From the NCBI GenBank assembly GCA_002898795.1, contig BEIG01000001.1, positions 192-64,191 of the forward strand: a stretch of DNA of 64,000 nucleotides. Direction: 5' to 3'. The first letter of the stretch is position 1; each line of letters begins with the position of its first letter. The position numbers were made by a program, and so were the translations under genes. The notes under the pieces were generated by a model that did not search any database, was not told the origin of the DNA, and saw only the letters and a program-made list of their open reading frames with translations. Shown here in pieces: positions 4,322-58,083 of this stretch. The DNA is from a bacterium HR30 (GTDB lineage Bacteria; Desulfobacterota; Binatia; HRBIN30).

Positions 4322-7300
4322 GTGGAGCACAAACGTCAGCTCACACGACGGTTTCGGCATCGCATCCCAATCGGTGCCGCGCTTCGTTGGCTCTGGATGC
4401 TTCTCCTGGTGGGGCAAGCTCCGATCACGTCGGCAGCGGGCGAAACCGTGTGCTGCCTTTGCATCTTCACCAACGAACAGAACGAGGTGTTTTCCTTTTG
4501 CGGTATGTCCGACCCGCAAGGGAACTGCGCGCCCGGGTGCGACCCTGTGACGAATGCCGACTGCGTCCAGGGCACGTGCGTGTTGTTCACGCCGACACCA
4601 AGTTTTACCCCGACTTTAACCCCGACACCCACCCTGACGCCCACTGCCACTCGCTCGCACACGCCCACGGATACACCTCTTCCCACGGCAACGCCCACGC
4701 CCACGCAAACCAACACCTCGACTCACACCCCTACCCGCACACCGACGCGCACGCCTACACCGACCAACACCTTGACCCCCACGCGCACTCTCACCCCGAC
4801 GATTACCCAAACCCCCACCATAACTCCCACACCGACAATCACCCCAACGCCAACGGCAACCCCAGGGCAATCTGACTGCTGCCAAGCGGTGCTCGTGGGG
4901 CAGCTCGTGTGTGCTGCTCCGGCCAATCACGACTGTGGGCCGGGGGTCATTGTTTACGGTGCCACATGCCTGGAGACGGGCGCTTGCGCTACCTTCACGC
5001 CCACTTTCAGCCCGACACTAACGCCCACCGTCACGCGAACACCGACGTTCACTCCTACCCCGAGCCCTACCGCCACGTTCACGCCAACGCTGGGAGGCAA
5101 CGACTGCTGCCAAATCATGTCGGGTTCGCAACTCTTTTGTGGAGTGCCTGCCGGTGCCGCCTGCCCTTCTGGGGCTACTCCGGTTTACGGTGCCCTGTGC
5201 ATAGCCGGAGCTTGCATCACCATGACCCCGACCATCACACCCACACCGACGATTACGCCAACGCCCACCAATACGCCAATCGCTTTTCCGACCTCGGGCC
5301 CCAACTGCATGGCGCTGGCACCGAACGGCCCGGCTGAGGCTCCCGCAAACTTTGCTTTCAACTGCGCGCAGAATTGGCAGTGCGTCGGCGGGCACGATGG
5401 CGACGCAACTTACGTGTACTTCAACCAAGACACGGCAGCGCTCGGCCCCAGGATCGACATGTACCAGATCGAAGACGTCGTCCCACGTACGGAACGGATC
5501 ATCTCGGTGGACGTTCACGTCGTGTCGCGGTCGCTCGCCGGCAGCCCGCGCAGCACTGCGGCCCCTTTGCTGCGGGGCGGAACGAGCACGATTTTCGAGG
5601 GTCCGGCGCGGCAACTGACTACGCAGTACGTGGACTACTCCCATCGTTTTTGCCAGCGCATCGCGCCTACGCCCGGACCGCCGCCTTGTTTGAACCCTGC
5701 CTTTGGTGCCGAGTGGACCTGGGCTGACATCAATCGCATGCAAGCGGGCGTATCGCACCAAGTCGGCAGCGGGGACACTGTCCGCACCACCAGCGTATGG
5801 GTGGAAGTTTGCTGGGAAGTGCCCACGCCAAGCCCCACACCAACGAATACACCCTCGGCAACGCCAACGGTCACATTCACGTTTACTCCTTTGCCGACGC
5901 CAACTCCTACGGAAACACCAACGCTGACGCCAACCCCCACCATTACGCCAACCCCCTCGCCCACACCGACATATACACCCACGCTAACTCCCAGTATCAC
6001 GCCCACGTTCACGTTTACCCTGACTCCGTCGCTCTCGCCGACCCCGAGCTCCACTCCTTCGGCAAGCCCATCCAATACGCCCACTTCGTCATTCACCGCC
6101 ACTTCCACGCCGTCGAGTACGCCGACGCATACCAGCACGCGATCGCCAACCCTAACCGCAACATTTTCTTCGAGCCCAACGCCAAGCTCCACGGCAACGC
6201 CAACCCCCTCGGCAACCTCGACCGCAACCCGTACACGCACCGTCGCACCCAGCCCAACACAAAGCCCCACTGCAAGCCCCACGGCCACGCAAACCCCGAT
6301 ACCGCCAAGCCCAACTGCAACCGCCACGAACACCGTAACCCCGAGTGCTACGGGCTCTCCCCCCACAGCCACGCCGACGCCCGCACCGAGAATTCCGTTC
6401 CTTTTTGGATTTGGATCCGGAGGGAATGAGTCCCCTTGTGCCTTCGGTCTCGCTAGCTCCTTGTTCTCCGAAGGCGCGAGCACTCAACCCTTGACGCAAA
6501 TCGAAACTCAGGACCCCCTGTTCCAGCGCCAGCGCTTTCAGGTGATTTACGTGGGACCCGACCTCGGTTTGGACGATTACCTGGTGTTACAACGTTTGGC
6601 TGCACCTGGTGGAGTGATCGAACGGTTCGTGGCCGACGGAGGCGTGGCGGTGATCCATGCTGGCGGCCGCTTCAACGATCAGAACAACATTGCCCCGGGC
6701 GGGGTCGGCTTCGCTCGCGTGGGCAGCCACAATGCGGAGACGATCGAGACACCGACGCACCCGTATTTCACGGGCGAAGGATTTGGTGGCGTGCCACTGA
6801 CCCAGGACGATTTTGCAAACTGGGAGAACACCGACGAAGGCATTCTGACGAATCTTCCCGCCGACGCCACCGTGCTGCTCCGGAACAGTGATGGGCCGAG
6901 CATGGCCGAATACGTTTACGGCAATGGCCGGGTGATCGTGAGTACGCTGGCCTTTTGCTGGGATGGCCGTCCGCGCTCCACCGGCGTAGCGACGACGAAC
7001 CTGCTGCGTTACGCGCCTTTCTTCCTAGGCAGCGCCCTGACTCCGGCTCCCACGGTCACACCTACCGGCAGTCCGACTCCCACGTTTACCCGCCCGGCCA
7101 CGCGCACCCCGACGCCAACGCGCACGCGTACACCAACCCGAACCCCGAGCCTGACGCCGACGGCTTCCTACCTTGTCGGAGATGCCGACAAGAATGGCGT
7201 CGTCGACGGGAACGACCTCCTCTCGCTTCTTGCCATGTTGTTCCAGGAAATTCCCGAGGTTCCGGAAGCTGACGTGAACCGCGACGGCCGACTTACCGCC

Positions 7301-7351
7301 GCCGATATTTCCGCCTTACTCGAACTTCTGGACGCAGTGGGCCGGCGTTAG
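4322..7351 (+). CDS. Large secreted modular protein (1009 aa): signal peptide, three 6-Cys modules, Thr/Pro-rich linkers, two globular domains, C-terminal type-I dockerin
   Basis: GTG start. N-terminus [23 protein letters not shown] is signal-peptide-like. TPTPT linker repeats throughout. C-terminus [18 protein letters not shown]...[21 protein letters not shown] matches the duplicated Ca-binding dockerin loops. Confidence 0.8.
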
Positions 7352-7382: not shown

Positions 7383-7814
7383 CTAGCGTGGGCGGCTGCC
7401 GCCGCCGGTGAGCGGCGCCCTCGGTTTCGGGGGCCCAGACTTTTCCACGAATTCCAGCAAGTCCCCTTCGAGCGAGCGTACTTGCTCGATGATCCTTCTC
7501 GCCAGAGGACGAAGCTCTGCTTTTTCTTCGGCCTCCGCCAGCGAGTACTGCTTGGAAGCTAATGTCCGGGTCTTCCCATCTCGTTCCTCAGCCACCTCGG
7601 TGGCTTCGAAGGTGACGACCGTGTCCCCACCAGGGCTATTCTGTACCGTGAACGTCGTAATCAGGCGCTTTTTCTGCGCCGGCGCCGGTGTGGGCGCGGG
7701 AGTAGGCTCGAAGGGGCCGAGGTCCAAAATCACGGGTGGTGGCCCGAGGCGAGGTTCCGCCACTGCAGCCACCGCCCACAGCCAAACGACAAACGAGAAG
7801 GTTTTTCCGTACAT
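7383..7814 (-). CDS. Small secreted hypothetical protein with a PTPAPTPAPA linker
   Basis: Signal peptide MYGKTFSFVVWLWAVAAVA. Convergent with the giant dockerin protein gene. Confidence 0.5.
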   Translation of the reverse strand: MYGKTFSFVVWLWAVAAVAEPRLGPPPVILDLGPFEPTPAPTPAPAQKKRLITTFTVQNSPGGDTVVTFEATEVAEERDGKTRTLASKQYSLAEAEEKAELRPLARRIIEQVRSLEGDLLEFVEKSGPPKPRAPLTGGGSRPR

Positions 7815-18848: not shown

Positions 18849-20222
18849 CTAGCGAAGCGACGCGGCAAAGTCGTCGAAACTCTGCCCGAATGCTGCGGAG
18901 AACGCATCCCGCCACGGCTGTTCTGCCGTCGCGCGGACGAAGCCCAGAACCCGGTGCATCCCGTACTGCTCGCTTAGCGACACAACGGCCAGGTAACTGG
19001 CCGCGTAAGCAACTTCAGCGGCATGCTTCTCCAAAGCCGAAAAGGATTGCGGCAACGTATGTAAGGATACTCCCTCTTGCTCCGTCTGCAGCCCTTCCGC
19101 CCAGTGCCATCGTTCTCCCGGGTGGTCATCTTCGCACCACATCGCCAAACCTTCTTGCAACCATGCCGGAGCTCGGTTGCGACTCCACTCCGTCACCAAG
19201 GCGTGCGCCAGTTCGTGCCGGGCTACCCGCTCGAGATGTCCGCGGTCACTGTCCCTCAACCCACCGATCGGCAACTGGATACGCCCTGTGTATACGCCGC
19301 CCGCCCAATCCGGCGATCGAGTGACGGCATAGAAGTCTGAAGAGGGATACAGCACGACGCGCACCGGAGCGGCTGGACCGGCTCCGAGGCGTCGCAGAAG
19401 CGAATCGTACGCATCCTCGAAACCGGAGATGACCAAATCCAATACTGCTGCGTCATCAAAGGCAGGATGGCGAAAATCGAACCGCGCACTGCGAGTGGTT
19501 ACGTACTCCCACTCGGCGTCTACTTCGCGGCTCAGCCGCTCGATCTTCTGCCGCAGCTCAGGAGAGTCGAGTCCGGCCGCGCGGGCTCGCGTGAGGTAAT
19601 CCAAGGCCCGCGGGCGATCGTCGCGTTGTTCCGACAGTTCTGCCAAAGCCAGCAGCAAACGAGGATGATCCGAGAACTGCAAGAGCGCCTTCTCCCAAAT
19701 GGCCTGCGCCCGCGCGGCCTCTCCCTGGTGGAGCCATGCCTGTCCGAGCCAGTACTCCACCTCTGGGTCGGCTTGCAGCTCCGACGCTTCTCTCAAGAGC
19801 TCCGCTGCTGCGGCAAGCCGGCCAGCGTGGAATTCATCAACACCCCACGCCAGCAACACTTGCTGAAGATTCCGGCGCATCGAGTCGTTGCCCGGATCCA
19901 AGCGCAGCGCATGACGCAAATGCTCTGCCGATTGCGGCCACTGGCGCCGTCGCGCAAAGGCGACACCAGCGTTGTTATAACCCACTGCTTCGGGAACAGT
20001 GGAATCTTGCGAATCTTCCAGCAGCGTGGTGACCCCGCTTTCGGACTCAACTCCTCCACTCGGCTTTGGCGGTGTGTTGCTACTGTCAGAAAATTCTCGA
20101 GAAAGCTTCCACGGACTTACTGGCAGGAGCAGCCCCAAAGACCAAGCTACTGCCAAACCGGCAGCAAGGCCGGCAACCAAGGCGCGCACGACCGCACTCC
20201 TAGGGACGCTTGGCTTTGCCAT
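18849..20222 (-). CDS. Membrane-anchored TPR-repeat protein with a C-terminal peptidase MA-like HExxH domain
   Basis: N-terminal TM AVVRALVAGLAAGLAVAWSLGLLL, TPR-like helices, and HELAHAL...E zincin motif. Confidence 0.75.
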   Translation of the reverse strand: MAKPSVPRSAVVRALVAGLAAGLAVAWSLGLLLPVSPWKLSREFSDSSNTPPKPSGGVESESGVTTLLEDSQDSTVPEAVGYNNAGVAFARRRQWPQSAEHLRHALRLDPGNDSMRRNLQQVLLAWGVDEFHAGRLAAAAELLREASELQADPEVEYWLGQAWLHQGEAARAQAIWEKALLQFSDHPRLLLALAELSEQRDDRPRALDYLTRARAAGLDSPELRQKIERLSREVDAEWEYVTTRSARFDFRHPAFDDAAVLDLVISGFEDAYDSLLRRLGAGPAAPVRVVLYPSSDFYAVTRSPDWAGGVYTGRIQLPIGGLRDSDRGHLERVARHELAHALVTEWSRNRAPAWLQEGLAMWCEDDHPGERWHWAEGLQTEQEGVSLHTLPQSFSALEKHAAEVAYAASYLAVVSLSEQYGMHRVLGFVRATAEQPWRDAFSAAFGQSFDDFAASLR

Positions 20223-20816: not shown

Positions 20817-21986
20817 TTACATCACCTCTTGCCACGACGTGATCATCATTGCCTTTGGCATATACCCGCCTCCGCTCGGTGGTACGATAAGGTTCAAACA
20901 TGACTCACAAAAGTCGATAATGGCGCTGCCACCCACTCGGATGACCATGTGGGCTGTCCAGAGTGACCCCATCACCGTAGCGTTACCGAGCACAGCGGTT
21001 TGGTCGTCGGAGCTAGGCCCACTAATCACCGTGCTTCCGCGTACGATGATCCACCCGACGAAGTTCAGATTTCCATTGATGGTGAGCGAGCCGTCGACAA
21101 TGAGAATGCCGGCACCCGAAGCGTTGCCGTTAGCGTGAATGGTGACGTCCGAAGCCGTCAGGTGCGTAATTTGTGGACTCTGCAGCGTCCCAAACGTGAC
21201 GTTTCCATTGATTCGGCTCGTGTTATTCCGTACCACTCGCGGATCGGCCAGAATCGAGTTTACGACGCGGTTTAGGTCGGACCAGTCTGGTCCCCCGCTT
21301 GTCACCACACTCGGGTTCAAGGGACTAAGGGAAAACTCGGAACCGCGCACATTATCCTTTTGCTGGGCATTCAGGGCAGATTTGACTGCATTCGTTACAT
21401 TGTCATTGCGTGTGGCAACTCCCGGCGCCACGGTGCCGGCAACCAAGTTCCCGTACGGGTCGTGGTTGTTGCCGTCGATATCAAACGCATTTCCCGAGAA
21501 GCTCGGGGTCACGCTGTCGGCGGCCAGATAAATCGCCCCGATTCCGCGACCAATGGGGCCGCGTTTTACGCCAATACGGACAATCCGACGTGCACTGTAC
21601 GGAGCCCACCCTGTAGCCGTGATCCATCCCCGATCTGCCGGATTCGTGGGGTCGGCTTCCACGGTCGCAGTAAACGTAAACTGTGGGTAACCAACGAGGG
21701 ATTGTAGGCTTGGCGAGAACAACGTGTTCCAGCGTGTAACGACGTCGTTGGCAAAATGGGTCACGCCCGACTGATTCATGACGTTCACGGCACGCAACGC
21801 TCCCGCCTCGGCAGCAAACAGGGCCTGGTTACCAGTTTGGAAGTGGTTCATGGAGCGGAACTCGAGGCCGGCATAGAGTGCGGCTGCGGCACCCATGGTG
21901 ACGAGCAGCAACAAGAGCATGAGGGTGCTCGGCAACGCGAAGCCGGTTTCCTTTTTATTTTGGTTCCCGAAGCAGTTCACGTGCAT
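20817..21986 (-). CDS. Type IV pilus minor component, PilX-like
   Basis: N-terminus KETGFALPSTLMLLLLLVTMGAAAALYAGLEF resembles PilX_N. ATG at 21984-21986. The long upstream extension in the ORF track was rejected. Confidence 0.7.
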   Translation of the reverse strand: MHVNCFGNQNKKETGFALPSTLMLLLLLVTMGAAAALYAGLEFRSMNHFQTGNQALFAAEAGALRAVNVMNQSGVTHFANDVVTRWNTLFSPSLQSLVGYPQFTFTATVEADPTNPADRGWITATGWAPYSARRIVRIGVKRGPIGRGIGAIYLAADSVTPSFSGNAFDIDGNNHDPYGNLVAGTVAPGVATRNDNVTNAVKSALNAQQKDNVRGSEFSLSPLNPSVVTSGGPDWSDLNRVVNSILADPRVVRNNTSRINGNVTFGTLQSPQITHLTASDVTIHANGNASGAGILIVDGSLTINGNLNFVGWIIVRGSTVISGPSSDDQTAVLGNATVMGSLWTAHMVIRVGGSAIIDFCESCLNLIVPPSGGGYMPKAMMITSWQEVM

Positions 21987-22642
21987 CCCACTTTGTTTAC
22001 GAAAAAGCGGTTCCTCAAATCGGTGCTCGACGATGCAGTAGCCGTCAGGGACAGCGAGTTTTGGGGATCGACCGACCTGCGCTGGACGTTGACCACAACC
22101 TGTACTCGCCGCACTTGCGCACGCTGGGTCGCGGTCAAGCCGTTTGTGCCCGGATTCAGTTCCGCGCCGGAGACGTCGAAGTACCGGAACTGCAAACCAG
22201 TCACACGGACCGTGGCGTCGGAAAGTGCCTCGGTGGTCCCACCAGCAGTTCGCCAAAGGATCCCGGAAGGATCGAGGCTGTACGTGACATCCTCACCGGG
22301 TAAGTCAATGGCACCGCTCCCATCGAGGTCACTCATCAATCGGAGCCGGTCCCGCTTGGCCTCAGCAATTCCATCGAAGGTTTTCGCGCAACGGGGATCG
22401 GCACCGGCACGCCGAATTTCCGCAACGACCAATTGCGCAATATTCCGGGCGGTGGTTTGCACATCGAGCTGCGCAGTTTGGCCACGCAAGCCAAACAGTT
22501 GCACCCGATACAAGCCCAGCACTGCGGCAATTGTGGTGAGGCCCAACACCGTTGCGACTAACGTGTCCGCAAGGGAATACCCCCCCTGACTACGCAACAG
22601 GAGCAGCTTCTTGCCGACTAACTGCAGGTGGCGGTGGTGCAT
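21977..22642 (-). CDS. Type IV minor pilin, PilW-like
   Basis: Leader MHHRHLQLVGKKLLLLRSQGG followed by YSLADTLVATVLGL (G-1, Asp at +5). The start at 22640-22642 overlaps the PilV-like gene end. Confidence 0.65.
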   Translation of the reverse strand: MHHRHLQLVGKKLLLLRSQGGYSLADTLVATVLGLTTIAAVLGLYRVQLFGLRGQTAQLDVQTTARNIAQLVVAEIRRAGADPRCAKTFDGIAEAKRDRLRLMSDLDGSGAIDLPGEDVTYSLDPSGILWRTAGGTTEALSDATVRVTGLQFRYFDVSGAELNPGTNGLTATQRAQVRRVQVVVNVQRRSVDPQNSLSLTATASSSTDLRNRFFVNKVGCT

Positions 22643-28363: not shown

Positions 28364-30583
28364 TCAGGACGGAGGCTTCTCCACTGGGTGCACCGCACCG
28401 TCGCGGAGAAAAACCAAGATGGTATCCAATGGAACAGGGAATCTTACCCACGCCGGCCCTTCGTAAACTTCGTCCGTGTCCCAAAAATTTCGCCAGCGCC
28501 CGCGGGGGAAGTAGACCACGCGTTCCCGCTGCCCAATGCGCCACACTGGTGCGACCATCAGGTCCGGCCCAAACAGGTACTGATCCCAGCGGTCTTGGAG
28601 TTCGCGATCGCTGGGGTCGAGGAACGGCATGGGTCGCACGAGGGGCAGGCCGCGGCGGGCATCGCGGGCTGCAGCCACGATGTACGGTTGCAGAGCATGA
28701 CGCAGCCGAGTGTAGCGGCGGTAAATGTCGATCATCTCGGTGTCGTACTTTGGTTCTGTGGGCATGTCCCAAGGAGCATGGGAACCTTTTCCCCCAATTT
28801 CCATAATGCCAGAGAAGGCACTGAATTCGATCCAACGCGCAAAGACGTCTCGGTGCTTGAACTGGTAGTAGCCGCCCGTGTCGGAACCCCAAATGGGGAA
28901 ACCCAGAAATGCGGCTCGCTGTTGCGAGATGATCGCACTGCGCATGCCGAGATCGGTCCCAGCCCCTTCACCGAAGTCCTCACTGCCTGCAGTATCGCCG
29001 CCCCAAACGATCGAATCTGCCTGAGTTCCCGTATAACCGGCGCGGGCGATCAGCACGTAATTGCCGTCGGGGCGAACGAGGTCGAGTGCTTCTCGGTGCA
29101 TTCGGGTTTGCAGCACCACGTAGTCGTTGTGCACTTCGCGGCCCGAGCGACCGTCAGCCCAAATGTCGCTGCGTTCGGACGGGATGTGCTCCTCGCCGCG
29201 GTCGAGCTTGATGCCGTCGATACCCTCGTCGCGCAGAAAACGCGCTAGCCGCTCTTGGAACCACTCGCGCGCGGCAGGGTTGGTCACATCGAGGATGAAA
29301 TTGCGGCCCCGGACGTCGTCGCAAAACGGGGCGCCGGTGCGCCGCATCGGGGCAATGAACCCTAACTGCTGTGCTTCGTAACCATTGTCGCCAGGATTAC
29401 TGCCGCACACCCACGCCGCACTCCATGTCACCAGCCGGTACCCACGCCGCCGCAACGCATCGAGCATCGCGCGCGCGTTCGGTAACCGGTCCTCGTCCCA
29501 CGCGAAGCGCGCAAAGCCAAAGTTTCCCTGCAAAACCGGCCGGTCGAGCAAATACACCCCGGAAGGGATCCCTAGTTGCTCGTACATCAAGACATCTTCG
29601 GCTACCGCTGCATTGATGGGTACGCCGTCGAGCTCACCCGGAGGTCCAAGCGGTAATTCGTCGCGCCAACGCCAGTGCAGGAAGGCCCATGCCGGCGCTA
29701 CTAATGGGCGCCCGGTCAGGCGTGTGTACTCGTCGAGAATCGTGGAAAACTCTGGCCCGTAAAACAGGAACATGGTGAGATGTTGGTTTTCTGGCCGGCT
29801 CCCGCTTTCGAACACGAACGACACGGTGTTCGGCTCCGTGGCGGCAAGGTCGTATAGTCCCGGCATCGTACCCGCCACGCTGAGCCCGTACCCGCGCGAA
29901 CTTTGATAAAACGGTGCGTATACCGCGATGGTCGGCCGAACGAACATCTCCACGGTCTCGCCACGGCGGTCGAGAGAGCCCACCTCACGCGGTCGTGCCT
30001 CCTCTTGGGGAACCTCCACAACGCCGGGAAGCAAGGGTGGCGAGTCGCGCAGCCGTTCGGTGAGTCCGTAAATGCGCTCGTCACCCGGGCTTTCCCAACT
30101 TGCTCCGACGGCGGTGGTCTCCGCGCCGCGTGGGGGGACGAAGTCCAACCGCACCGTACGCTCCGTCACGAACGCAACCACGAGCTGCCCCTGCTCCCCC
30201 TCGCCCGTTTCCACGGTGAGGCGAACTCCTGCATGCTCTGCCGTAGCAGCGCCGACAGCGGTAACTTCCGCGGCTCCGTTTCCCCGGCGATAGAACAGAC
30301 CATTGTGTGCTGCGGTTCGCGTGAGCGGATCTCCCTGGTCGCGCGCAGCAAACTCTAGGCGGAAAGGATTTCGCTGCACAATCACCTTCAGCACGGGCGA
30401 TTCCACCGCGATCGTGCTGGGCCCGATGAACACCTGCACGTTCGCCCGCGCAGGGGGTTCGCCATCGTCCCCACAACCGCTGAGCAAGCACCCACCAACC
30501 GCTAACGCTACGAGCCAGCCAACCACGGGGCCATTAGCTTCGTGGAAAGGAAACCCCTGGGCAAGTAGGAACGAACCTCTCAT
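28364..30583 (-). CDS. Glycoside hydrolase family 31 (alpha-glucosidase/alpha-xylosidase-like), probable lipoprotein
   Basis: GIDGIKLDRGEE and IVWGGDTAGS match the GH31 catalytic region. N-terminal ...LVALAVGGCLLSGC. Confidence 0.8.
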   Translation of the reverse strand: MRGSFLLAQGFPFHEANGPVVGWLVALAVGGCLLSGCGDDGEPPARANVQVFIGPSTIAVESPVLKVIVQRNPFRLEFAARDQGDPLTRTAAHNGLFYRRGNGAAEVTAVGAATAEHAGVRLTVETGEGEQGQLVVAFVTERTVRLDFVPPRGAETTAVGASWESPGDERIYGLTERLRDSPPLLPGVVEVPQEEARPREVGSLDRRGETVEMFVRPTIAVYAPFYQSSRGYGLSVAGTMPGLYDLAATEPNTVSFVFESGSRPENQHLTMFLFYGPEFSTILDEYTRLTGRPLVAPAWAFLHWRWRDELPLGPPGELDGVPINAAVAEDVLMYEQLGIPSGVYLLDRPVLQGNFGFARFAWDEDRLPNARAMLDALRRRGYRLVTWSAAWVCGSNPGDNGYEAQQLGFIAPMRRTGAPFCDDVRGRNFILDVTNPAAREWFQERLARFLRDEGIDGIKLDRGEEHIPSERSDIWADGRSGREVHNDYVVLQTRMHREALDLVRPDGNYVLIARAGYTGTQADSIVWGGDTAGSEDFGEGAGTDLGMRSAIISQQRAAFLGFPIWGSDTGGYYQFKHRDVFARWIEFSAFSGIMEIGGKGSHAPWDMPTEPKYDTEMIDIYRRYTRLRHALQPYIVAAARDARRGLPLVRPMPFLDPSDRELQDRWDQYLFGPDLMVAPVWRIGQRERVVYFPRGRWRNFWDTDEVYEGPAWVRFPVPLDTILVFLRDGAVHPVEKPPS

Positions 30584-44744: not shown

Positions 44745-46865
44745 CTACCAAAAGCAGTCGGGAACAGCGGCCGTGCGGCCGAGCACAAGGTCCAGTTGCG
44801 CTAATTCGCGACGCCAGTAACACAGGGTGTGGGCCTTTTGCAGGTAACCGTATTGGTAGAGCGTGGGATTCCGCCCCGCGGCTGTCAGTCGTGCTCCCAT
44901 TGGGTCCAGCAAGGCTGCATGCCGCCGATCGACCACGGACTGGGCCCGCGCAAGTGTCTCCAGCGCGGTAGCCCGCAACCGCTGCGCCGTGTCGGCATCG
45001 CCTCCGGCCACCGCCAGCGCCGCGCGATAAACGCTTTCGATGAACCTGGCCCGTAAGGGCTGCATGGCCAACCCGTCGGAAAGCTCTGCCAACCAGAGAT
45101 TCTCCACTTCCCTCACAGCACCCTGGAACTCCGCAACAACCCGGTCCGATTCTTCGGCCAGCACGGCTAGCGGCTCGAGCACACTCGCTGCAAAACGCGC
45201 CCTTTCGTCTTGAGACCAACGCACGACCTCGCGCAGTTCCGGCCGGTCCGGCTGCGAGTGAATTCCCAGGCGGTCTCCCAAGTCGATGATGGCATCTCGG
45301 CCTGCCAAATATGGCGCCAAACGTTGATGAATGGCTGCGCGAGCCTGCAGTTCTGCCAAGCGTTCGACTGCACTCGCCGCAGCCAAACCCGCTGGTCCCA
45401 TGGGTTCGAAGATGTACCTCGCCAGTTCTTGCCACTGGTTGGGCAAGTGGAAGGACATCCACAAACTCGCCAAGTCATTTTGCCAGTACCCCCACTCCCA
45501 CCCGGAGGAAAAGATGACGTTGGCACGCAACGACGAGGTCGGAGCAAGGCGGCGAATTTCCGCCAAGTCGAGCCAACGGGAGCGGAGGTAAACCGGGAAA
45601 TACAAGGGCACCGAGTTGTCAAACGCAATCCAATAGGCCGACTCGGGATGATAACCCACCGGAACGCCTGCGCGGAGTTTGGTCAATAGGTACTCGCGAT
45701 GCTCGGCAAACTCGTCGTAGTCGTACGCCCCCGCCGCAGGCTCGAACAAATTAAAGTACATCACGGTGTGCACCCACGGCTCGATCGGCACCGACGCAAA
45801 ATCGACGAGGAAATAATACAGTAGTTGTCGTCCGCCGTACTCCACCCGCAAGTTTGGGTAGTTTCCCAAGTGCACGGATGCAGACATCTGCACCCCCGGC
45901 GCGACTCGTTGCAGCGTGTCATAAGCACGCTCCACCATCCGCACAAACGCATCAGGGCTCTCGCCGAAAAATTCGCCAAACGAGAGCATCACCCAGTCGA
46001 AGCGCGCCGCATTGAAAAGAAGCCGCCAACGGTTGACCATGGTTGCGTCCGGATCGGGGTCATCCGGGCGATCGAGGAGGTCGAAAGCGTTTTGCAAGTT
46101 CGAAGAACTGAACAATTGCACAGCGATTCCCACCTGCATGCCGCGGGCATGCGCCGCGTCGACGATCGCTCGGGTGTGAGCGGCCCATTGCTGGTAACGC
46201 TCAGGGTCGCGCGCAATGTCGTTGAGCGCCACCCACTGCACGTAATTGCCGCGGTTCCACGCCACCCAGTCGAGAGTTCGCTGCGCGCGTTCGAAGGCCT
46301 CAGGACCCGTGAGCCAAAAATCGTAGAGCGATTCAATTGGGTGAAGCGTATGGAGTTGTAAGCCCCGCAAAGGGATTTGCGGCTGCTGCAACTGGCCAAA
46401 CGACCGACCCGCGCCTTGCAAGTCGAACACGGCCGGCACAAAGGTACGAAATGGGTGCAAGAACCGCACGCCGAGACTTTCGAACCACGCCGCTAGGCCA
46501 AACACGCAACCCAGCACATCTTCTTGTCCGCAGCGGACCACAGCCGAGGCTGGCACTCCCTGCAAGCGAAAGCACTCCCGACACGGCAGATCTTGTTCCA
46601 CCAACACCTGCAACTCAGCTCCGGAACGTGGAGCGTGGCCGGATCCTTCCGAGTTCTCCACGCGCACGTTCAGCGGGACGGAAGCAACCATCTCCCCAAT
46701 CCGCTGCCGTAAACTCTCCGGCATCCGAACAGAAATCGGCGTTGTCGCTGGCAGGGACGCTTGCTCAACCTCACCATCGTCCCCACATCCGACACCAAAC
46801 CACAGGATAAACCACAGGCACAGAACCCACCGACTTGCCCGCCCCACCACTCGTCCAACTCCCAT
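44745..46865 (-). CDS. Large hypothetical lipoprotein (about 700 aa; possibly glycoside-hydrolase-like, unsupported)
   Basis: MGVGRVVGRASRWVLCLWFILWFGVGC lipobox. ATG at 46863-46865. Confidence 0.6.
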   Translation of the reverse strand: MGVGRVVGRASRWVLCLWFILWFGVGCGDDGEVEQASLPATTPISVRMPESLRQRIGEMVASVPLNVRVENSEGSGHAPRSGAELQVLVEQDLPCRECFRLQGVPASAVVRCGQEDVLGCVFGLAAWFESLGVRFLHPFRTFVPAVFDLQGAGRSFGQLQQPQIPLRGLQLHTLHPIESLYDFWLTGPEAFERAQRTLDWVAWNRGNYVQWVALNDIARDPERYQQWAAHTRAIVDAAHARGMQVGIAVQLFSSSNLQNAFDLLDRPDDPDPDATMVNRWRLLFNAARFDWVMLSFGEFFGESPDAFVRMVERAYDTLQRVAPGVQMSASVHLGNYPNLRVEYGGRQLLYYFLVDFASVPIEPWVHTVMYFNLFEPAAGAYDYDEFAEHREYLLTKLRAGVPVGYHPESAYWIAFDNSVPLYFPVYLRSRWLDLAEIRRLAPTSSLRANVIFSSGWEWGYWQNDLASLWMSFHLPNQWQELARYIFEPMGPAGLAAASAVERLAELQARAAIHQRLAPYLAGRDAIIDLGDRLGIHSQPDRPELREVVRWSQDERARFAASVLEPLAVLAEESDRVVAEFQGAVREVENLWLAELSDGLAMQPLRARFIESVYRAALAVAGGDADTAQRLRATALETLARAQSVVDRRHAALLDPMGARLTAAGRNPTLYQYGYLQKAHTLCYWRRELAQLDLVLGRTAAVPDCFW

Positions 46866-47351
46866 TGCGTTACCCCAGCAATCCCCGGTTGCAAGTGCCA
46901 TTATGCCCAAGATTTCTAACTCTGCAACCACCGTCTGTCACGGTTCAACGTGTGCGTTGCTTCACTGCCGTCGGGCCCCCACCAAGAAATCGGTTACACA
47001 CGCCAACGTCACCGACCGGATGCCCATGCTCTCGATCCGGCTGGCAAGCCTTGGCGATGATCTCGAGCAGGCAAGGTCTCAAAGCCGTCAGAGGCACGGT
47101 ACTTTCCATACCCTCGTTCCGTGGCTGACGGCACATAACGCACAGCGGCGTGCGGAGGAAAACGGCGCGCGGCCTATTCCCTCGCGTTCTGCAGAAGAAT
47201 CCTGAGGCGCCGAGTGTCGCACTAGAGTGCCTGCTCGACGACGCGGAACTCCTTTCCCGCCCTCGAGCGAGAGCCGGTCGGTTCGCCTCCGTGCGACCGT
47301 GCTGGCCAAATCCCTTTGCACCGAACCTGCGTGCCAGGCTAGGGAGCAGTC

Positions 47352-49066: not shown

Positions 49067-49756
49067 ATGAGCGAGCCGTGGTCGCGACGTTCCGTACTCA
49101 AACTCGGGGCTGCCGCTGCCGTAACCTTTTGGGTACGCCGTGCCTCGGGGGAAACCGCACCCTTTGCCCTACCTCCCCTCCCCTGGGAGGAGAACGCCTT
49201 AGCCCCGACCATCTCGGCGCAGACGATTTCGTTCCACTACGGCAAGCACCACCGGGCCTATGTGGAGAACTTGAACAAACTGGTCGCGGGTACCGAGTTC
49301 GCCGACTTACCCCTCGAACGGGTCGTGCAGCAAACAGTGGGAAAGCCTGAGAAGGTGGCCATCTTCAATAACGCGGCGCAAGCTTGGAACCACACATTTT
49401 ACTGGCGGAGCTTGAGCCCGAAAGGTGGGGGCAAACCAACCGGAAAACTTCTGGAACAAATCGAGCAAGACTTTGGCGGATTCGACCAGTTCCGCGCAAA
49501 GTTTGCGCAAGCCGCTGTCGGCCAGTTTGGCAGCGGGTGGGCTTGGCTGGTTAAAAGCAGCGGGCGCTTAGAAATTCTTGCCACGCCCAATGCCGACACG
49601 CCCATCACGATGGGGAAAACGCCGCTGCTCACCATCGACGTGTGGGAACATGCCTACTACCTGGACTACCAAAATCGACGCGGCGATTACGTGAACGCCG
49701 TGATCGACAAACTCCTCAACTGGGAATTTGCCACCCAGCAGTTCACGTCGGCTTAA
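49067..49756 (+). CDS. Fe/Mn superoxide dismutase with twin-arginine (Tat) signal peptide
   Basis: [14 protein letters not shown] Tat motif. HYGKHH and [18 protein letters not shown] signatures. GGGAGGTG RBS. Confidence 0.9.
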
Positions 49757-49787: not shown

Positions 49788-51425
49788 TCAGCGGGCTCGA
49801 CCGAACCACTGACGCACCCGCTCGGCAAGCGACCTTGGTTCCTCGCGAGCCTGGAAGGTCGTCTCCACCCGGTATACACGCTGGCCACGCCGCACTACCC
49901 ACGCCACCGTGTTTTCTCGGGGGAATTCTGGTCCCCACAGCACTGCATCGAAGGAAAAGACGCTTTCTCCATCGAGCACAGCCACCATGCGCTTTTTCCA
50001 GGTTGCCTCCCAAGCCAAGTGCTTTCCGTCCGGCGAAAAGCGCGGCCGCCAGGCCTCGGAGTACGCTAGCGGAAACGCACGCCCATCGATGAAGTAACGC
50101 CACGTCGTGCGCTCCACATCATCGGCTGCTGCGTAAGCCAGCCGCCGCCCATCGGGGGAAAATGCTAAACCCCAAACCGCGTAGTACGGCCCCCAGCGCA
50201 CGCCGTCGGACACCACATCCAACAACACGTCGCGGCTAACCGGCAGCGCCCGCCAGCACGGAAACGCGACGCGTGCGCCATCGTCGGAGAGCAGCGGCGG
50301 TCCCTGCTCCCAAAAGTGCTCGCACACGGGTTCCACGGCTGCACCGCCGTGCACTACACGCCACTGCGTTTCCTGCCCTGGAACCTTTTCCCACCAAGCC
50401 ACCTGAGGGGCTTCGTCTGCACTGGTCAACGACCCGGCCAGGATCGTCGGCGAAGTTCGAAATTGGTCGAAACCAACCGCAAAGTCGCCTTCCACGCTCC
50501 ACACATGCGCGAAAGAGGCGAGACGTTGGTCGTTGCGGTACACCGCCCAGCCGTCGGCATCGTAAACCAACGTGACCAGGCTACCGTCTTTCAAGTACAC
50601 TGCGCGAAATTGGCGCAAGCCAGGAGGTCGGTTGGACAAACGCATCGGTGGCGACGCCTTGTCGGGTGGGGCAGGGGAGAGAATCCGCCGTTCCTCCCCA
50701 TCGACAACCAACACATGCTTGCCGTCTTCCCGCTCTGCAACAAAGGCAATGTGGGTTCCATCCGCGCTCAACGCCGGGACAGAAACGTCGCGGAACCTTC
50801 CGATCAAGGCGCCGTTGGAGATCACGCCTACCAGGGGTGGGCTACTTTCTGTTTGCTCTCGGGGGGCGAGGCTGCACACGGTTGCCCATCGACGGCCGTT
50901 TCGGCTGAGCCAGAAGAGGTTTGGACCCATGCATTCCGTATCCACGACGCGCCCGTTCTCCACGATCACGAGCTTTTCCGCCCCAAGGCGCCGCTCGATG
51001 GCCCAGTAAATCCGGGTGTGGGTCTCGCGCAGGAACACGGGGTTGCCCACCTCCTCGAACTCTGGGTCGACCCCGTCCCGGAACACCACGCGTTGGCCAG
51101 CGGTGGTGCGATCGACGTAGGCGTAGTGTTCCCCGTCGGAACCAATGGCCAAGCTCGTGCGGCGTGCGCTTCCGGGTAAGCGCACGAGCTCTTTCACCAC
51201 GGTGGCTTTTGTCGTGCTCACGCGCGAATCGTTTTTCGAGCACGCAGCGGTGGAAGCAATCAGCGCAAGCGCTAGCGCGGTTTGCCTTCTCCAACGGGCA
51301 CTGCTGGCGATGGGGTACCAACGGCGGCCTCCCGGAGTTCGGAGTGATCCCGTTTCGTTCCACCCGCTGGCAGTGGAGTGGCTACGACTTTTCCTCGGGT
51401 GCATCACCAGACTTACGCCGCCCAA
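49788..51425 (-). CDS. Lipoprotein with PD40/TolB-like beta-propeller repeats
   Basis: ALALALIASTAAC lipobox and recurrent FSPDG(K/R)(H/R)LA(Y/W) motifs. Confidence 0.6.
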   Translation of the reverse strand: MGGVSLVMHPRKSRSHSTASGWNETGSLRTPGGRRWYPIASSARWRRQTALALALIASTAACSKNDSRVSTTKATVVKELVRLPGSARRTSLAIGSDGEHYAYVDRTTAGQRVVFRDGVDPEFEEVGNPVFLRETHTRIYWAIERRLGAEKLVIVENGRVVDTECMGPNLFWLSRNGRRWATVCSLAPREQTESSPPLVGVISNGALIGRFRDVSVPALSADGTHIAFVAEREDGKHVLVVDGEERRILSPAPPDKASPPMRLSNRPPGLRQFRAVYLKDGSLVTLVYDADGWAVYRNDQRLASFAHVWSVEGDFAVGFDQFRTSPTILAGSLTSADEAPQVAWWEKVPGQETQWRVVHGGAAVEPVCEHFWEQGPPLLSDDGARVAFPCWRALPVSRDVLLDVVSDGVRWGPYYAVWGLAFSPDGRRLAYAAADDVERTTWRYFIDGRAFPLAYSEAWRPRFSPDGKHLAWEATWKKRMVAVLDGESVFSFDAVLWGPEFPRENTVAWVVRRGQRVYRVETTFQAREEPRSLAERVRQWFGRAR

Positions 51426-52916: not shown

Positions 52917-54149
52917 ATGAAGAGGTGGCCGATAGTTCGGAGGGTGGTTGCGGCATTGGTGGGTGGCGCGCTTTTGTGGCTGCCTTCCCTGGCACGGTCG
53001 GAACCGTACATTGCGGTGCGCGAGGGGATGCGTTGTAGTTCTTGCCATACCAACGTCACCGGTGGCGGAAAGCGCACGGATCTGGTGAGTACCCATGCCA
53101 AGGATTTGCTGCACTATCCCGATTTCCTCGGACCGTTTTCCCGTCCGCTCGAGTACTTTACCGGCGAGATCAATCCCTACCTCGCTCTTGGCGGCGACCT
53201 CCGCACGAGTGCGACCTTGATTTTCCAGTCCCTCGGGGCCAGCGGCAGGGTGCGCAACGACCAAGTGTTTCGTGGGCGGCTGGAACAGACCCGACTCGAG
53301 ACGACCCAAGCAACCCTTTATGGGGAGCTAAAATTGATTCCCGATCGAGTGACCTTTTACCTCGATCAGCGCTTTCAACCCACCGTAGACAACCGCGAGG
53401 CCTTTGCCCTGCTGAAGGGATTCCTTCCGTGGAACGGGTTTTTCAAAGTCGGACGCATGTTCTTGCCCTATGGCCTCCAGTTGCAAGACGACGAAGCGTT
53501 CATTCGTGGCGGGCGCTCGCGCGGCTCGAGCTCTGCTGCCAGCGGTTTCAGTTTCAATTTGCAAGAGCCGGGAGCGCTCGTGGGCTTCGAGCCGGGCAAC
53601 TGGTCGCTGCTGTTTGCCGTCACCGACGGCAGTGGCGGCGACCGCGATGTTCGCACCGTCGGCACGGTTTACGCGGTATACGACGACGTTCCACTCCTAC
53701 GCACCTTGTTGATCGGTGGCTCGGCATCGCGAGTCGCCCCGCCAAGCGGAGAAACCCTGCTCTTTGGCTTTTTCGCTGGTACGAATTTGGGCCCCGTGAC
53801 GATTTTGGGAGAGGCTGACTTTCGCAGCGACAAAGGGCGCACCACGTTGGGTCGCCGCGTGGGGCAATTCCTCGCCTACGGCGAGGCCAACTATCTGTTA
53901 TTCGGCTGGTTGAACGTGAAGGCCGCGATCGACTACGCCGACAGCGATGGACGGCTAACCCGGCAAGTTGGCGGAGTCACCGTTCTCGACACGGCCAACG
54001 ATGCGGAGCACCGCGTGAGCTTTGGCCTCGAACCATTCTTGAATCGGTTCGTACAACCACGGCTCTTTTATCGCATCAACAACGGGATCCGCTCCGACCC
54101 CACTCACAATCAAAACGTGCTTTTGCTCGAAGCCCACGTGTTTTTCTAA
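52917..54149 (+). CDS. Putative outer-membrane beta-barrel protein with an N-terminal CxxCH motif
   Basis: Signal peptide MKRWPIVRRVVAALVGGALLWLPSLA. MRCSSCH near the mature N-terminus. Alternating amphipathic strands and a C-terminal F. Confidence 0.6.
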   Translation: MKRWPIVRRVVAALVGGALLWLPSLARSEPYIAVREGMRCSSCHTNVTGGGKRTDLVSTHAKDLLHYPDFLGPFSRPLEYFTGEINPYLALGGDLRTSATLIFQSLGASGRVRNDQVFRGRLEQTRLETTQATLYGELKLIPDRVTFYLDQRFQPTVDNREAFALLKGFLPWNGFFKVGRMFLPYGLQLQDDEAFIRGGRSRGSSSAASGFSFNLQEPGALVGFEPGNWSLLFAVTDGSGGDRDVRTVGTVYAVYDDVPLLRTLLIGGSASRVAPPSGETLLFGFFAGTNLGPVTILGEADFRSDKGRTTLGRRVGQFLAYGEANYLLFGWLNVKAAIDYADSDGRLTRQVGGVTVLDTANDAEHRVSFGLEPFLNRFVQPRLFYRINNGIRSDPTHNQNVLLLEAHVFF

Positions 54150-56278: not shown

Positions 56279-57613
56279 CTAGGGCGTCGGGCTCGCACTC
56301 GCTTCCGGCGAGTCGTGCAGCGCCCTTCGATCGGTGCTTGGCGCTCTGGGGTTGCTTTCGTCCGCGCTCTTCCCCCCACCCGCGGGTTTTCCAGAAGGCC
56401 CGAACTCCTGAAACAGCTTCACCACCAGCGACGCTACCTCCCCCGGCTTGGCCGTGAGCACCTCCCGCCTCAATTGCTCGAAGCGGCGCGGCGACAAACG
56501 ATGGGCCAGCTCTATCCGAGCTCTCAAATCCCGAACGGTGTCGTCTCTTACGAACCTCACAAACTCGAGTTCCTTTTCGCTCATCTCGCCCAACTTGGGG
56601 CCATACAACCGAGCAAGGTCGAAGTACGTGTCGTAATCGGCGTAGAATTTCGCTTTGATGAGCAACCACACTAGCTCATTTTCCGGATCGGCCAGCAGAT
56701 TCCGCCACGCCCTGCTGCAAGCCTGATCCCCAGGTTCCTCGCCAAAACAACGGGCAGCCATGTAATAGGACAACGCTAACGGAGCCGCCAGGTGGGGGCT
56801 ACGTCTTTCCACTTCTCTTGTAAAGGCGTCCCGAAACGCTCCGCACTTTTCTACGGTGCTGTCAGCAAGGCAAGAGGCTAACTTTTCGCCCACTTCAGGG
56901 CCAAGCTCGCTCAACGATCCTCTGGGAATTCGCAAGCTAAAGGGGCGCGGGGTTAGAGCTTGCCCGTTCTCGACCCAGGCCTTCCTTGCCATGTCGGCCC
57001 AGACTACCTGTTCGCGAAGCAACTCCACAAGTCCCGGGTCGCCATGTTCTTTCGCCTCTTCCCATTGGCGCACCGTTTCGTTCTGCAAGAGTTCGAACCG
57101 TTCGGGGTCCAGGCGGGCCGCAACCTCGAAGACGTACCTAGCTCTCACCGGGTCATTACCGCCCACCTGCGCCCGCCGCACCGCCCGGAGGTAGCTCCAA
57201 AAGATCTCCGTTTGCCGCTTCTTCAAAAGAGCCAAGTAACGTTCCCCCATCTGTCTTAGCTTGTCCTTCCAAACCTCTTGCTCCTTCATATCCCATTCGG
57301 GTGGGCTGTCGAAAAAGGGGTAATGATAGATGGCTCGCTGGATGGCATCGTAATGGTCCAAGGCACAATACGGGAAGAGCGCCCCGGAGCGCGTGCACAT
57401 TTCGAACTGGAGCCGGTACACCACCAGTGCCGAAACAAAGCCATAGCCGGACAGTCCATGGAGCGGGCGCTCCTGCAGCGGCTTTTTCAGCCATCGTTCG
57501 AGGAGCTTCACGGAGAAGTCAACGCTGGAATCATCGCTCGCCCCACCTCGTTGAGGACCGCCCGCAAGTCCTGCAACCGCTACCAGCAACAGGGGCAAAA
57601 GCAAGCGCCTCAT
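56279..57613 (-). CDS. Secreted hypothetical protein
   Basis: Signal peptide MRRLLLPLLLVAVAGLAGG and a strong AGGAGGTG RBS. No known domain. Confidence 0.55.
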   Translation of the reverse strand: MRRLLLPLLLVAVAGLAGGPQRGGASDDSSVDFSVKLLERWLKKPLQERPLHGLSGYGFVSALVVYRLQFEMCTRSGALFPYCALDHYDAIQRAIYHYPFFDSPPEWDMKEQEVWKDKLRQMGERYLALLKKRQTEIFWSYLRAVRRAQVGGNDPVRARYVFEVAARLDPERFELLQNETVRQWEEAKEHGDPGLVELLREQVVWADMARKAWVENGQALTPRPFSLRIPRGSLSELGPEVGEKLASCLADSTVEKCGAFRDAFTREVERRSPHLAAPLALSYYMAARCFGEEPGDQACSRAWRNLLADPENELVWLLIKAKFYADYDTYFDLARLYGPKLGEMSEKELEFVRFVRDDTVRDLRARIELAHRLSPRRFEQLRREVLTAKPGEVASLVVKLFQEFGPSGKPAGGGKSADESNPRAPSTDRRALHDSPEASASPTP

Positions 57614-57675
57614 TGTCGTGTGCACCTCCTGGAGACTACCACACTCCCTCGTCACTGCGCATAGTACAACTGCAC

Positions 57676-58083
57676 CTAGTCCCACCGGCAACCAGGGCAC
57701 TCAGCACGCGTACCCTTCAGCACCCATTTCGGCACCCACGTCTTCCCATATGGCGGGCCCCAATCGTATTTGAAATAGTCCGCCTCGTTGCCCGGGGCCG
57801 GCAGGGATGCCGCCGTCAAACTGCGCACCGATATAAAATGCGTCGGCCCTTTCGGGTTCCCGATACCCGTTCTCAGGAACTCCTCGGCCAAGGCGAAATC
57901 CTCCGCGGTCGGAACGAGCTTCGGGTTCGGGCTCCTGCAGCCAACGTAAGCGCTGCACACATCCGCTACACTGGTAGTTCCCCTCCGTGCCATGCGGTTG
58001 AGCACCGTTTGCAAGATCGCTCGCCGCTCCTCCGCGCGGCACTGCTGCGAGCCACATTCGTTGGCCAGCAACCTCCCCAACAT
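57676..58083 (-). CDS. Putative cell-wall hydrolase (SleB/CwlJ Hydrolase_2-like)
   Basis: AILQTVLNRM and GPTHF resemble the Hydrolase_2 LNR and GATHY motifs. Weak support. Confidence 0.45.
   Translation of the reverse strand: MLGRLLANECGSQQCRAEERRAILQTVLNRMARRGTTSVADVCSAYVGCRSPNPKLVPTAEDFALAEEFLRTGIGNPKGPTHFISVRSLTAASLPAPGNEADYFKYDWGPPYGKTWVPKWVLKGTRAECPGCRWD

Follow-up and report, generated by a model that had tools for sequence, protein, structure and literature searches.

The 64,000-nucleotide stretch of contig BEIG01000001.1 from bacterium HR30 (hereafter the window) carries, at 4322..7351 on the forward strand, a single complete open reading frame (ORF). It starts with GTG, encodes 1009 amino acids (aa), and lies divergent from ORFs reading as hisS and aspS. 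Its product is probably a Candidatus Binatia protein of many modules, exported through the Sec route to the cell surface or beyond and built on the logic of a cellulosome subunit. The parts follow in the order signal peptide, three Cys modules set in Thr/Pro spacers, domain A, a 185-aa linker, domain B and dockerin. This overall design of binding modules, linkers, functional domain and dockerin is familiar from secreted modular proteins. By sequence search, the Cys module, domain A and domain B, three of the four kinds of folded unit here, match nothing in Pfam, NCBIfam or the Protein Data Bank (PDB). A preliminary description of the window, made from its letters alone, had called the protein a giant secreted modular one; the modular architecture was recovered, and at 1009 aa the protein is large, not giant. 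Literature searches found nothing on the protein family, and those combining Binatia with dockerin and ThuA gave nothing useful.

The full-length gene and its public annotation

The whole 1009-aa ORF is a real gene, judging from sequence comparison with its relatives. Orthologous full-length ORFs with an identical part order were found in loci L001 (7907-10927, 1006 aa) and L002 (7676-10975, 1099 aa), in both of which the gene runs divergently from those called as hisS and aspS. Upstream read-through sequences suggest that hisS is adjacent in several other relatives as well. In divergent orthologues the frame remained open over 900-1150 codons and domain order was kept. A genome scan returned 18 loci, most of them with open frames of 700-1900 codons and related architectures. 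Fourteen of these are titled Candidatus Binatia, and the other four delta proteobacterium, Deltaproteobacteria or Margulisiibacteriota; the family appears to be restricted to Binatia. Compared with L001 and with L006, every structured segment of the gene showed more synonymous codon changes than amino-acid replacements. Against L001, for example, we counted 70 synonymous and 14 replacement changes in domain A, and 21 and 4 in module 2. Since the excess extends to the N-terminal part that public annotation omits, it shows purifying selection on the frame of the ORF.

The public gene calls describe a much shorter gene. Domain B, used as a query, retrieved 55 database homologues (E down to 1e-122), all of them 236-362 aa long. 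The homologues examined begin in or just past the Thr/Pro linker and have no signal peptide, and every public gene call examined was truncated at its N-terminus. In L001 and L002 the public calls set low-complexity antisense ORFs (GVGV...) over the linkers. Read literally, these short proteins and opposite-strand calls would mean that the real gene is the C-terminal ~300 aa only, that is, domain B and the dockerin, and that the upstream 700 codons are an accidental frame in GC-rich, repeat-like DNA. We consider this explanation, the least probable of those weighed here, ruled out on present evidence. The called proteins start with linker sequence, the upstream frame is collinear and open in orthologues as distant as ~45-50% identity, and the part that it encodes includes the confidently folding domain A and the repeated Cys modules. 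The strong synonymous excess argues against it too, and the antisense "genes" are GVGV low-complexity translations without a Pfam match. We therefore keep to the full-length gene.

Antisense "GVGVGV" ORFs arising from the Thr/Pro linkers were located in the window (5635-6483, reverse strand), in L001 (9238-9957, reverse strand) and in L002 (7684-9099, reverse strand). Gene callers take such ORFs as genes, which leaves only the last ~300 codons of the true gene. The same truncation pattern probably affects many proteins with Thr/Pro linkers, whose signal peptides and N-terminal modules are under-represented in protein databases. Counts of secreted proteins and of domains in Binatia are skewed by it, as probably are those in other GC-rich lineages. 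This systematic truncation, together with the new mini-domain family described below, is the most useful by-product of the analysis.

Leader, globular domains and dockerin

All parts of the protein are given below with their window coordinates on the forward strand. In the signal-peptide-like N-terminus (aa 1-39, 4322..4438), as judged by eye, RRFRHR forms a basic n-region, WLWMLLLVG a hydrophobic core and TSAAG a c-region. This N-terminus is conserved among orthologues, and their leaders have clear A-x-A↓Q signal peptidase I sites 2-4 residues ahead of the first CC (e.g. ...ATPALA↓QGECC). The claim of export made in the preliminary description is supported by these sequence features, and export of the protein, which we infer, also fits the even Cys counts and the dockerin. 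A twin-Arg-like TRRF had raised the possibility of Tat export. Orthologues do not keep the twin-Arg, so this was rejected and Sec export is the likelier route. A lipoprotein signal was likewise rejected, as the lipobox is absent.

A composition scan found Thr/Pro-rich stretches of 89, 26, 19, 185 and 36 aa. They define linker 1 (aa 90-181, 4589..4864), linker 2 (aa 226-257, 4997..5092), linker 3 (aa 302-321, 5225..5284), the long Thr/Pro/Ser-rich linker 4 (aa 503-687, 5828..6382) and the Thr/Pro/Arg-rich linker 5 (aa 910-945, 7049..7156). In the structural model, linker 5 had a predicted local distance difference test score (pLDDT) below 50. The Cys modules had been said to be separated by linkers of more than 30 aa each, which is true of linker 1, borderline for linker 2 and wrong for linker 3. 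DNA tandem repeats were rejected as the source of the linkers, and linker 1 is not a perfect DNA repeat. The two globular regions expected beyond the modules were found at aa 322-502 and aa 688-909. Scans of the whole protein and of each segment with Pfam and NCBIfam hidden Markov models (HMMs) gave nothing beyond dockerin and EF-hand models; among the families proposed beforehand, Dockerin_1 was matched and ThuA was not.

Domain A (aa 322-502, 5285..5827) was modelled by AlphaFold 2 from a 30-sequence alignment as a confident beta-sandwich (pLDDT 92.3, predicted template modelling score 0.88). Its structural neighbours are jelly rolls of the carbohydrate-binding module (CBM) type. By this model the first globular region, which the preliminary description had left without identification, is a CBM-like (galactose-binding-domain-like) beta jelly roll, and the resemblance supports a role as a ligand-binding accessory module. 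No Pfam family covers domain A in the window protein or in 10 relatives, and a PDB sequence search gave chance-level matches only. A word-indexed protein search, by a limit of the tool, returned nothing for domain A alone or for an alignment of module plus domain A. An exhaustive HMMER search recovered 194 domain A relatives at E<=1e-3, often as tandem copies. With these, and with a few partial database proteins that contain Cys modules, the idea that modules and domain A are absent from protein databases was dropped. Domain A relatives are fused to an M10-like peptidase, to glucose/sorbosone dehydrogenase (GSDH) and to a GH27 alpha-galactosidase (melibiase), as well as to PKD, Flg_new, LTD, CARDB, and cohesin plus dockerin.

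Some short stand-alone relatives of domain A (P0079, P0124, P0150 and P0188) start with "MATETLRPNGxGD...". Stand-alone relatives match the C-terminal parts of the phage families phrog_2448 and phrog_6368, which indicates that the jelly roll is common to phages and cellular surface proteins. The sub-lineage of the window protein, to which L001, L006 and L008 also belong, has a 12-residue insertion in domain A (window 5612-5653, in the region of aa 431-456) that is absent in more distant orthologues. Two extra Cys, C444 and C456, flank the insertion, which probably forms a disulfide-closed loop.

Domain B (aa 688-909, 6383..7048) is the conserved core of the family. Its modelled core (pLDDT ~90) is a three-layer alpha/beta GATase1-like fold with ThuA-like proteins among the top structural matches, so that the loose ThuA/GATase1-like resemblance noted earlier for the second globular region holds at fold level. 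The ThuA Pfam HMM found no match in domain B at E<=10 and none at E<=1 in 42 relatives, and a PDB sequence search with the domain gave no match above chance level. The domain contains exactly two Cys, C706 and C879, far apart in the sequence and conserved family-wide, which fits a structural disulfide.

The C-terminal module (aa 946-1009, 7157..7348) contains two EF-hand-like calcium loops (7181-7216 and 7271-7306). Both 12-residue loops have D or N at positions 1, 3 and 5 and D at position 12, and a six-frame scan of the window found no other occurrence of the two motifs. Helices are predicted after the loops (model residues 278-288 and 309-322; dockerin pLDDT ~91). Dockerin_1 (PF00404) scored 25.7 bits with the module alone and 21.8-22.1 bits in the context of the whole protein, the gathering threshold being 22.9. 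The same model matches 41 of the 42 relatives (best E=1.4e-10). The best PDB matches of the family's dockerin profile were 2ccl_B (3.8e-6), 4fl4_A, 1clc_A, 2vn6_B and 1daq_A, aligned across both repeats. These are type I dockerins that bind cohesins, from Clostridium thermocellum and C. cellulolyticum, and a single-sequence search agreed. Identification of the C-terminal module as a dockerin with two calcium loops, as first proposed, is supported by these sequence matches. The label "type-I" stands as a statement of sequence similarity to type I dockerins, and not as an assignment beyond it.

The CCQC module

The Cys modules occupy aa 40-89 (module 1, 4439..4588), aa 182-225 (module 2, 4865..4996) and aa 258-301 (module 3, 5093..5224), and scored 38, 51 and 52 bits, respectively, with the module HMM. 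They are true internal repeats: BLASTP aligned module 2 with module 3 at E=4e-11 and module 1 with module 3 at E=8e-7. They had been reported as three 6-Cys modules of one pattern. The three repeats are there, and modules 2 and 3 are 6-Cys variants (CC-x9-C-x7-C-x10/11-C-x5/4-C), whereas module 1 has eight Cys (CC-x-C-x12-C-x8-C-x3-C-x7-C-x4-C). The module sequences quoted at the time were all present; the quoted spacing was wrong in the third gap, which in modules 2 and 3 measures 10-11 residues and not 7-9. A six-frame scan with the earlier pattern found no occurrence in the window outside this ORF.

The module is ~42 aa long, and 24 distinct modules from relatives aligned cleanly, with six invariant Cys and an invariant Val and Ala; the Cys columns are thus conserved in homologues. 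No Pfam match at E<=10 was obtained with the three modules of the window or with four canonical 8-Cys modules, and scans of whole module-rich proteins with NCBIfam and Pfam gave no match to a Cys module. A PDB search with the module profile reached a best E of 0.44, which is chance level. The module matches no family catalogued in these three databases, as had been suspected.

A DNA-level metagenome scan with a 5-sequence sub-alignment of the modules, which is biased toward canonical NDCCQC modules, yielded 61 additional loci. A local HMM then collected 150 distinct modules, of which 123 have eight Cys, 25 have six and two have seven. The two 7-Cys copies appear without the C-terminal end of the module, and the Cys count is even in the other 148. 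What sets 8-Cys and 6-Cys copies apart is an optional pair, namely Cys number three in the CCxC motif and the G-x-C Cys that immediately precedes the conserved Val. Both were present in 125 modules, neither in 25 and a single one in none, counts that do not amount to a formal probability because the module sequences are related. The pair has been lost in several lineages and at differing positions in the arrays. Since its members are present or absent together and never singly, the simplest reading is that they form a Cys3-Cys6 disulfide. The module is basically an 8-Cys unit, which on this reading has four disulfides, and 6-Cys copies, including modules 2 and 3 of the window, are derived variants that would have three.

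The Cys module also occurs in unrelated exoproteins, in arrays of 4-8 copies, and is always bounded by Thr/Pro linker. Arrays were found behind a PD40 beta-propeller in proteins with a hydrophobic, Arg-rich C-terminal tail (L040 3490-7605, L049 2-2401 and L067 1493-3793), after an N-terminal dockerin (L046 336-2072), in choice-of-anchor-Q proteins (L068 3932-6661 and L078 2726-5302) and in an FG-GAP protein (L056 1246-6387). At the C-terminus of several array proteins, a stretch rich in Gly and Cys leads into a hydrophobic segment and then a tail rich in Arg. This ending resembles a C-terminal sorting signal, for which NCBIfam gave no match. Such wide recurrence, across many exoproteins that are unrelated but come from the same environmental lineages, recommends the Cys module for structural and binding studies.

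Alternative readings, proposed function and known counterparts

Several observations weigh against a cellulosome-like subunit. The dockerin score of the window copy lies at the Pfam threshold, and a Pfam scan found no cohesin in the 20 other large ORFs of the window. That no cohesin partner is encoded in the window had been stated beforehand and was confirmed for the ORFs scanned. A phmmer search with one cohesin sequence, a weak test, found nothing in the window or in the fetched loci. In L010, L011, L014, L027, L045 and L058 the first calcium loop is deleted and the second kept, while L017, L019 and L020 end in a Cys-containing EF-hand-like variant, "CxGDCNxDGxVTVDEIL". A canonical cohesin-binding dockerin is thus not universally conserved in the family. 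The signal peptide was assigned by eye, and the disulfide bonding of the modules is deduced solely from Cys parity and co-variation. Neither a glycoside hydrolase nor any other enzyme domain can be recognised in the protein. Domain B is like known proteins at fold level only (10-16% identity), and a good many of the domains nearest to it in structure are non-catalytic. The loci with the Cys-containing tail belong to a short paralogue that lacks both the Cys modules and domain A, and which in two cases shares a metagenome-assembled genome with a long form (L014 with L017, and L011 with L020).

Some of these points bear on a reading, which we hold to be rather unlikely, in which the C-terminus is a dockerin-like EF-hand pair without a cohesin partner that stabilises the protein or binds the envelope or a polysaccharide directly. 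The missing cohesin and the degenerate loops are what it would predict, EF-hand Pfam models score nearly as high as Dockerin_1, and dockerin-like modules are widespread in non-cellulosomal proteins. It accounts less well for the best PDB matches, which are full-length to cohesin-binding type I dockerins and not to calmodulin-type EF hands. Nor does it explain why the module is always terminal after a linker, as in cellulosomal subunits, or why the same module is found at one end of many other proteins on related contigs. More evenly balanced, with a likelihood just short of even, is the view that domain B is a non-catalytic sugar-binding or protein-protein scaffold of the GIFT/DUF4350 type, the whole protein being an adhesin or spacer and not an enzyme subunit. 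Structural neighbours of the domain include IFT52, OST48/WBP1 and the middle domains of GH42 enzymes and of a beta-1,2-glucosyltransferase, and weak DUF4350 matches were obtained in two of the 42 members (E=0.005). The nucleophile elbow after the central strand reads VAVI(H/N)xAG, with no Cys or Ser, and no conserved His or Glu follows the last strands according to sequence and secondary structure. On this reading of its sequence domain B lacks the amidotransferase triad and is not a GATase, as a scaffold would also lead one to expect. Against a mere scaffold stand the ThuA-like proteins among the top matches and five near-invariant residues, H803, E806, H813, D838 and E863 (each in 38-41 of 42 sequences), which suggest a defined site and may mark a functional one. 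The CCxC and GxC motifs, with eight Cys in ~42 aa, resemble metal-binding motifs, and the Cys modules might accordingly be thiolate-cluster units, perhaps for metal capture or redox at the cell surface. This seems improbable given the even Cys counts, the two exceptions being seemingly incomplete at the C-terminus. The joint gain and loss of one pair is more in keeping with a discrete disulfide than with a shared cluster, the modules are placed after a Sec signal peptide in extracytoplasmic proteins, and conserved His, Asp or Glu partners are absent.

By analogy with cellulosomal subunits, we favour a tethered, Sec-exported protein with spacers, knotted mini-modules, a CBM-like targeting domain and a GATase1-like functional domain. 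The dockerin would tether the protein in a calcium-dependent manner to a surface partner, either a cohesin or an equivalent in function whose gene lies elsewhere; the cohesin anchoring first proposed is putative and based on the cellulosome analogy. The Thr/Pro segments would act as extended spacers. The Cys modules would fold as small disulfide-bonded knots, usually with four disulfides and with three in the second and third copies of the window, and serve as rigid nodes or small binding units. The jelly roll of domain A would target a glycan or other polymeric ligand, and domain B would bind or process a carbohydrate-type ligand through its polar cluster of His, Glu and Asp residues, and not by amidotransferase chemistry. 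A bolder version, which we think unlikely, makes CCQC an undescribed four-disulfide ligand-binding family (for glycans or surfaces), a bacterial counterpart of CBM1 arrayed across Binatia exoproteins. The protein would then be a subunit of a non-cellulosomal cohesin-dockerin surface assembly largely hidden by truncation. Should a cohesin partner exist, the protein would point to a surface assembly built on dockerins in a phylum for which metagenomes are the sole source. Methylotrophy and alkane degradation have been described for Binatia (PMC8262859).

In many relatives the neighbouring gene is convergent and encodes a protein that begins with a dockerin, continues in a long Thr/Pro linker, at times holding a single CCQC module, and closes with a domain of ~200 aa. 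Such neighbours were seen in L009 (reverse strand, 588 aa), L014 (668 aa), L043 (5361-7124) and L044 (5395-7344). Their ~200-aa "GPxITFFGL..." domain has no Pfam match and recurs inside L068. The window has no such dockerin-bearing gene. It has a small convergent ORF of 143 aa (7383-7814, reverse strand) with a signal-peptide-like start and no Pfam match, which is kept beside the gene in L001 (10968-11399) and not in L002. Elsewhere, the window encodes a TPR and Peptidase_MA_2 protein (18849-20222, reverse strand), a GH31 glycosidase (28364-30583, reverse strand), a superoxide dismutase of the Fe/Mn type whose leader is twin-arginine-like (49067-49756, forward strand) and a PD40-repeat protein (49788-51425, reverse strand). 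Four other large ORFs (20817-22256, 44745-46931, 52917-54149 and 56279-57700) had no Pfam match.

Each folded part can be set beside a known system. Fungal CBM1, by an analogy from general knowledge, likewise consists of Cys-stabilised units of ~40 aa, sometimes in tandem, in the Thr/Pro-rich linkers of secreted modular proteins. The Cys module differs in being bacterial, with a CC-x-C... pattern and eight Cys. It has no sequence similarity to CBM1, knottins, hevein, EGF or any other entry in Pfam, NCBIfam or PDB, and a binding role for it is suggested by analogy only. Domain A shares the beta-sandwich jelly-roll fold of CBM4, CBM16, CBM32, CBM61 and the galactose-binding-like domains. Unlike those it falls in no Pfam CBM family by sequence, and it belongs to a widespread family of its own without a Pfam model, one that includes phage proteins. 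The fold of domain B is like that of ThuA-like and class I glutamine amidotransferase-like proteins (PDB 1t0b, 2gk3, 4jqs and 3rht; PF06283/DUF4350 clan). It differs from the amidotransferases in lacking both the nucleophile Cys of the elbow and the His/Glu pair, and from the ThuA-like superfamily in being exported and fused to a dockerin, and in having no ThuA Pfam match.

The protein as a whole is most readily compared with cellulosomal subunits that bear type I dockerins. Unlike these, the protein comes from an uncultured Binatia bacterium and carries no glycoside hydrolase or known catalytic domain, and no cohesin was found in the other window ORFs scanned. Its dockerin family has a stretch between the repeats that is 5-7 residues shorter than in clostridial dockerins, and some of its members are degenerate. 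What is common to both is the duplicated calcium loop, with the family profile aligning over both repeats, and the order of parts: as in Xyn10B and CelD of Clostridium thermocellum (2ccl and 1clc), a signal peptide is followed by binding module, linker, functional domain, linker and dockerin.

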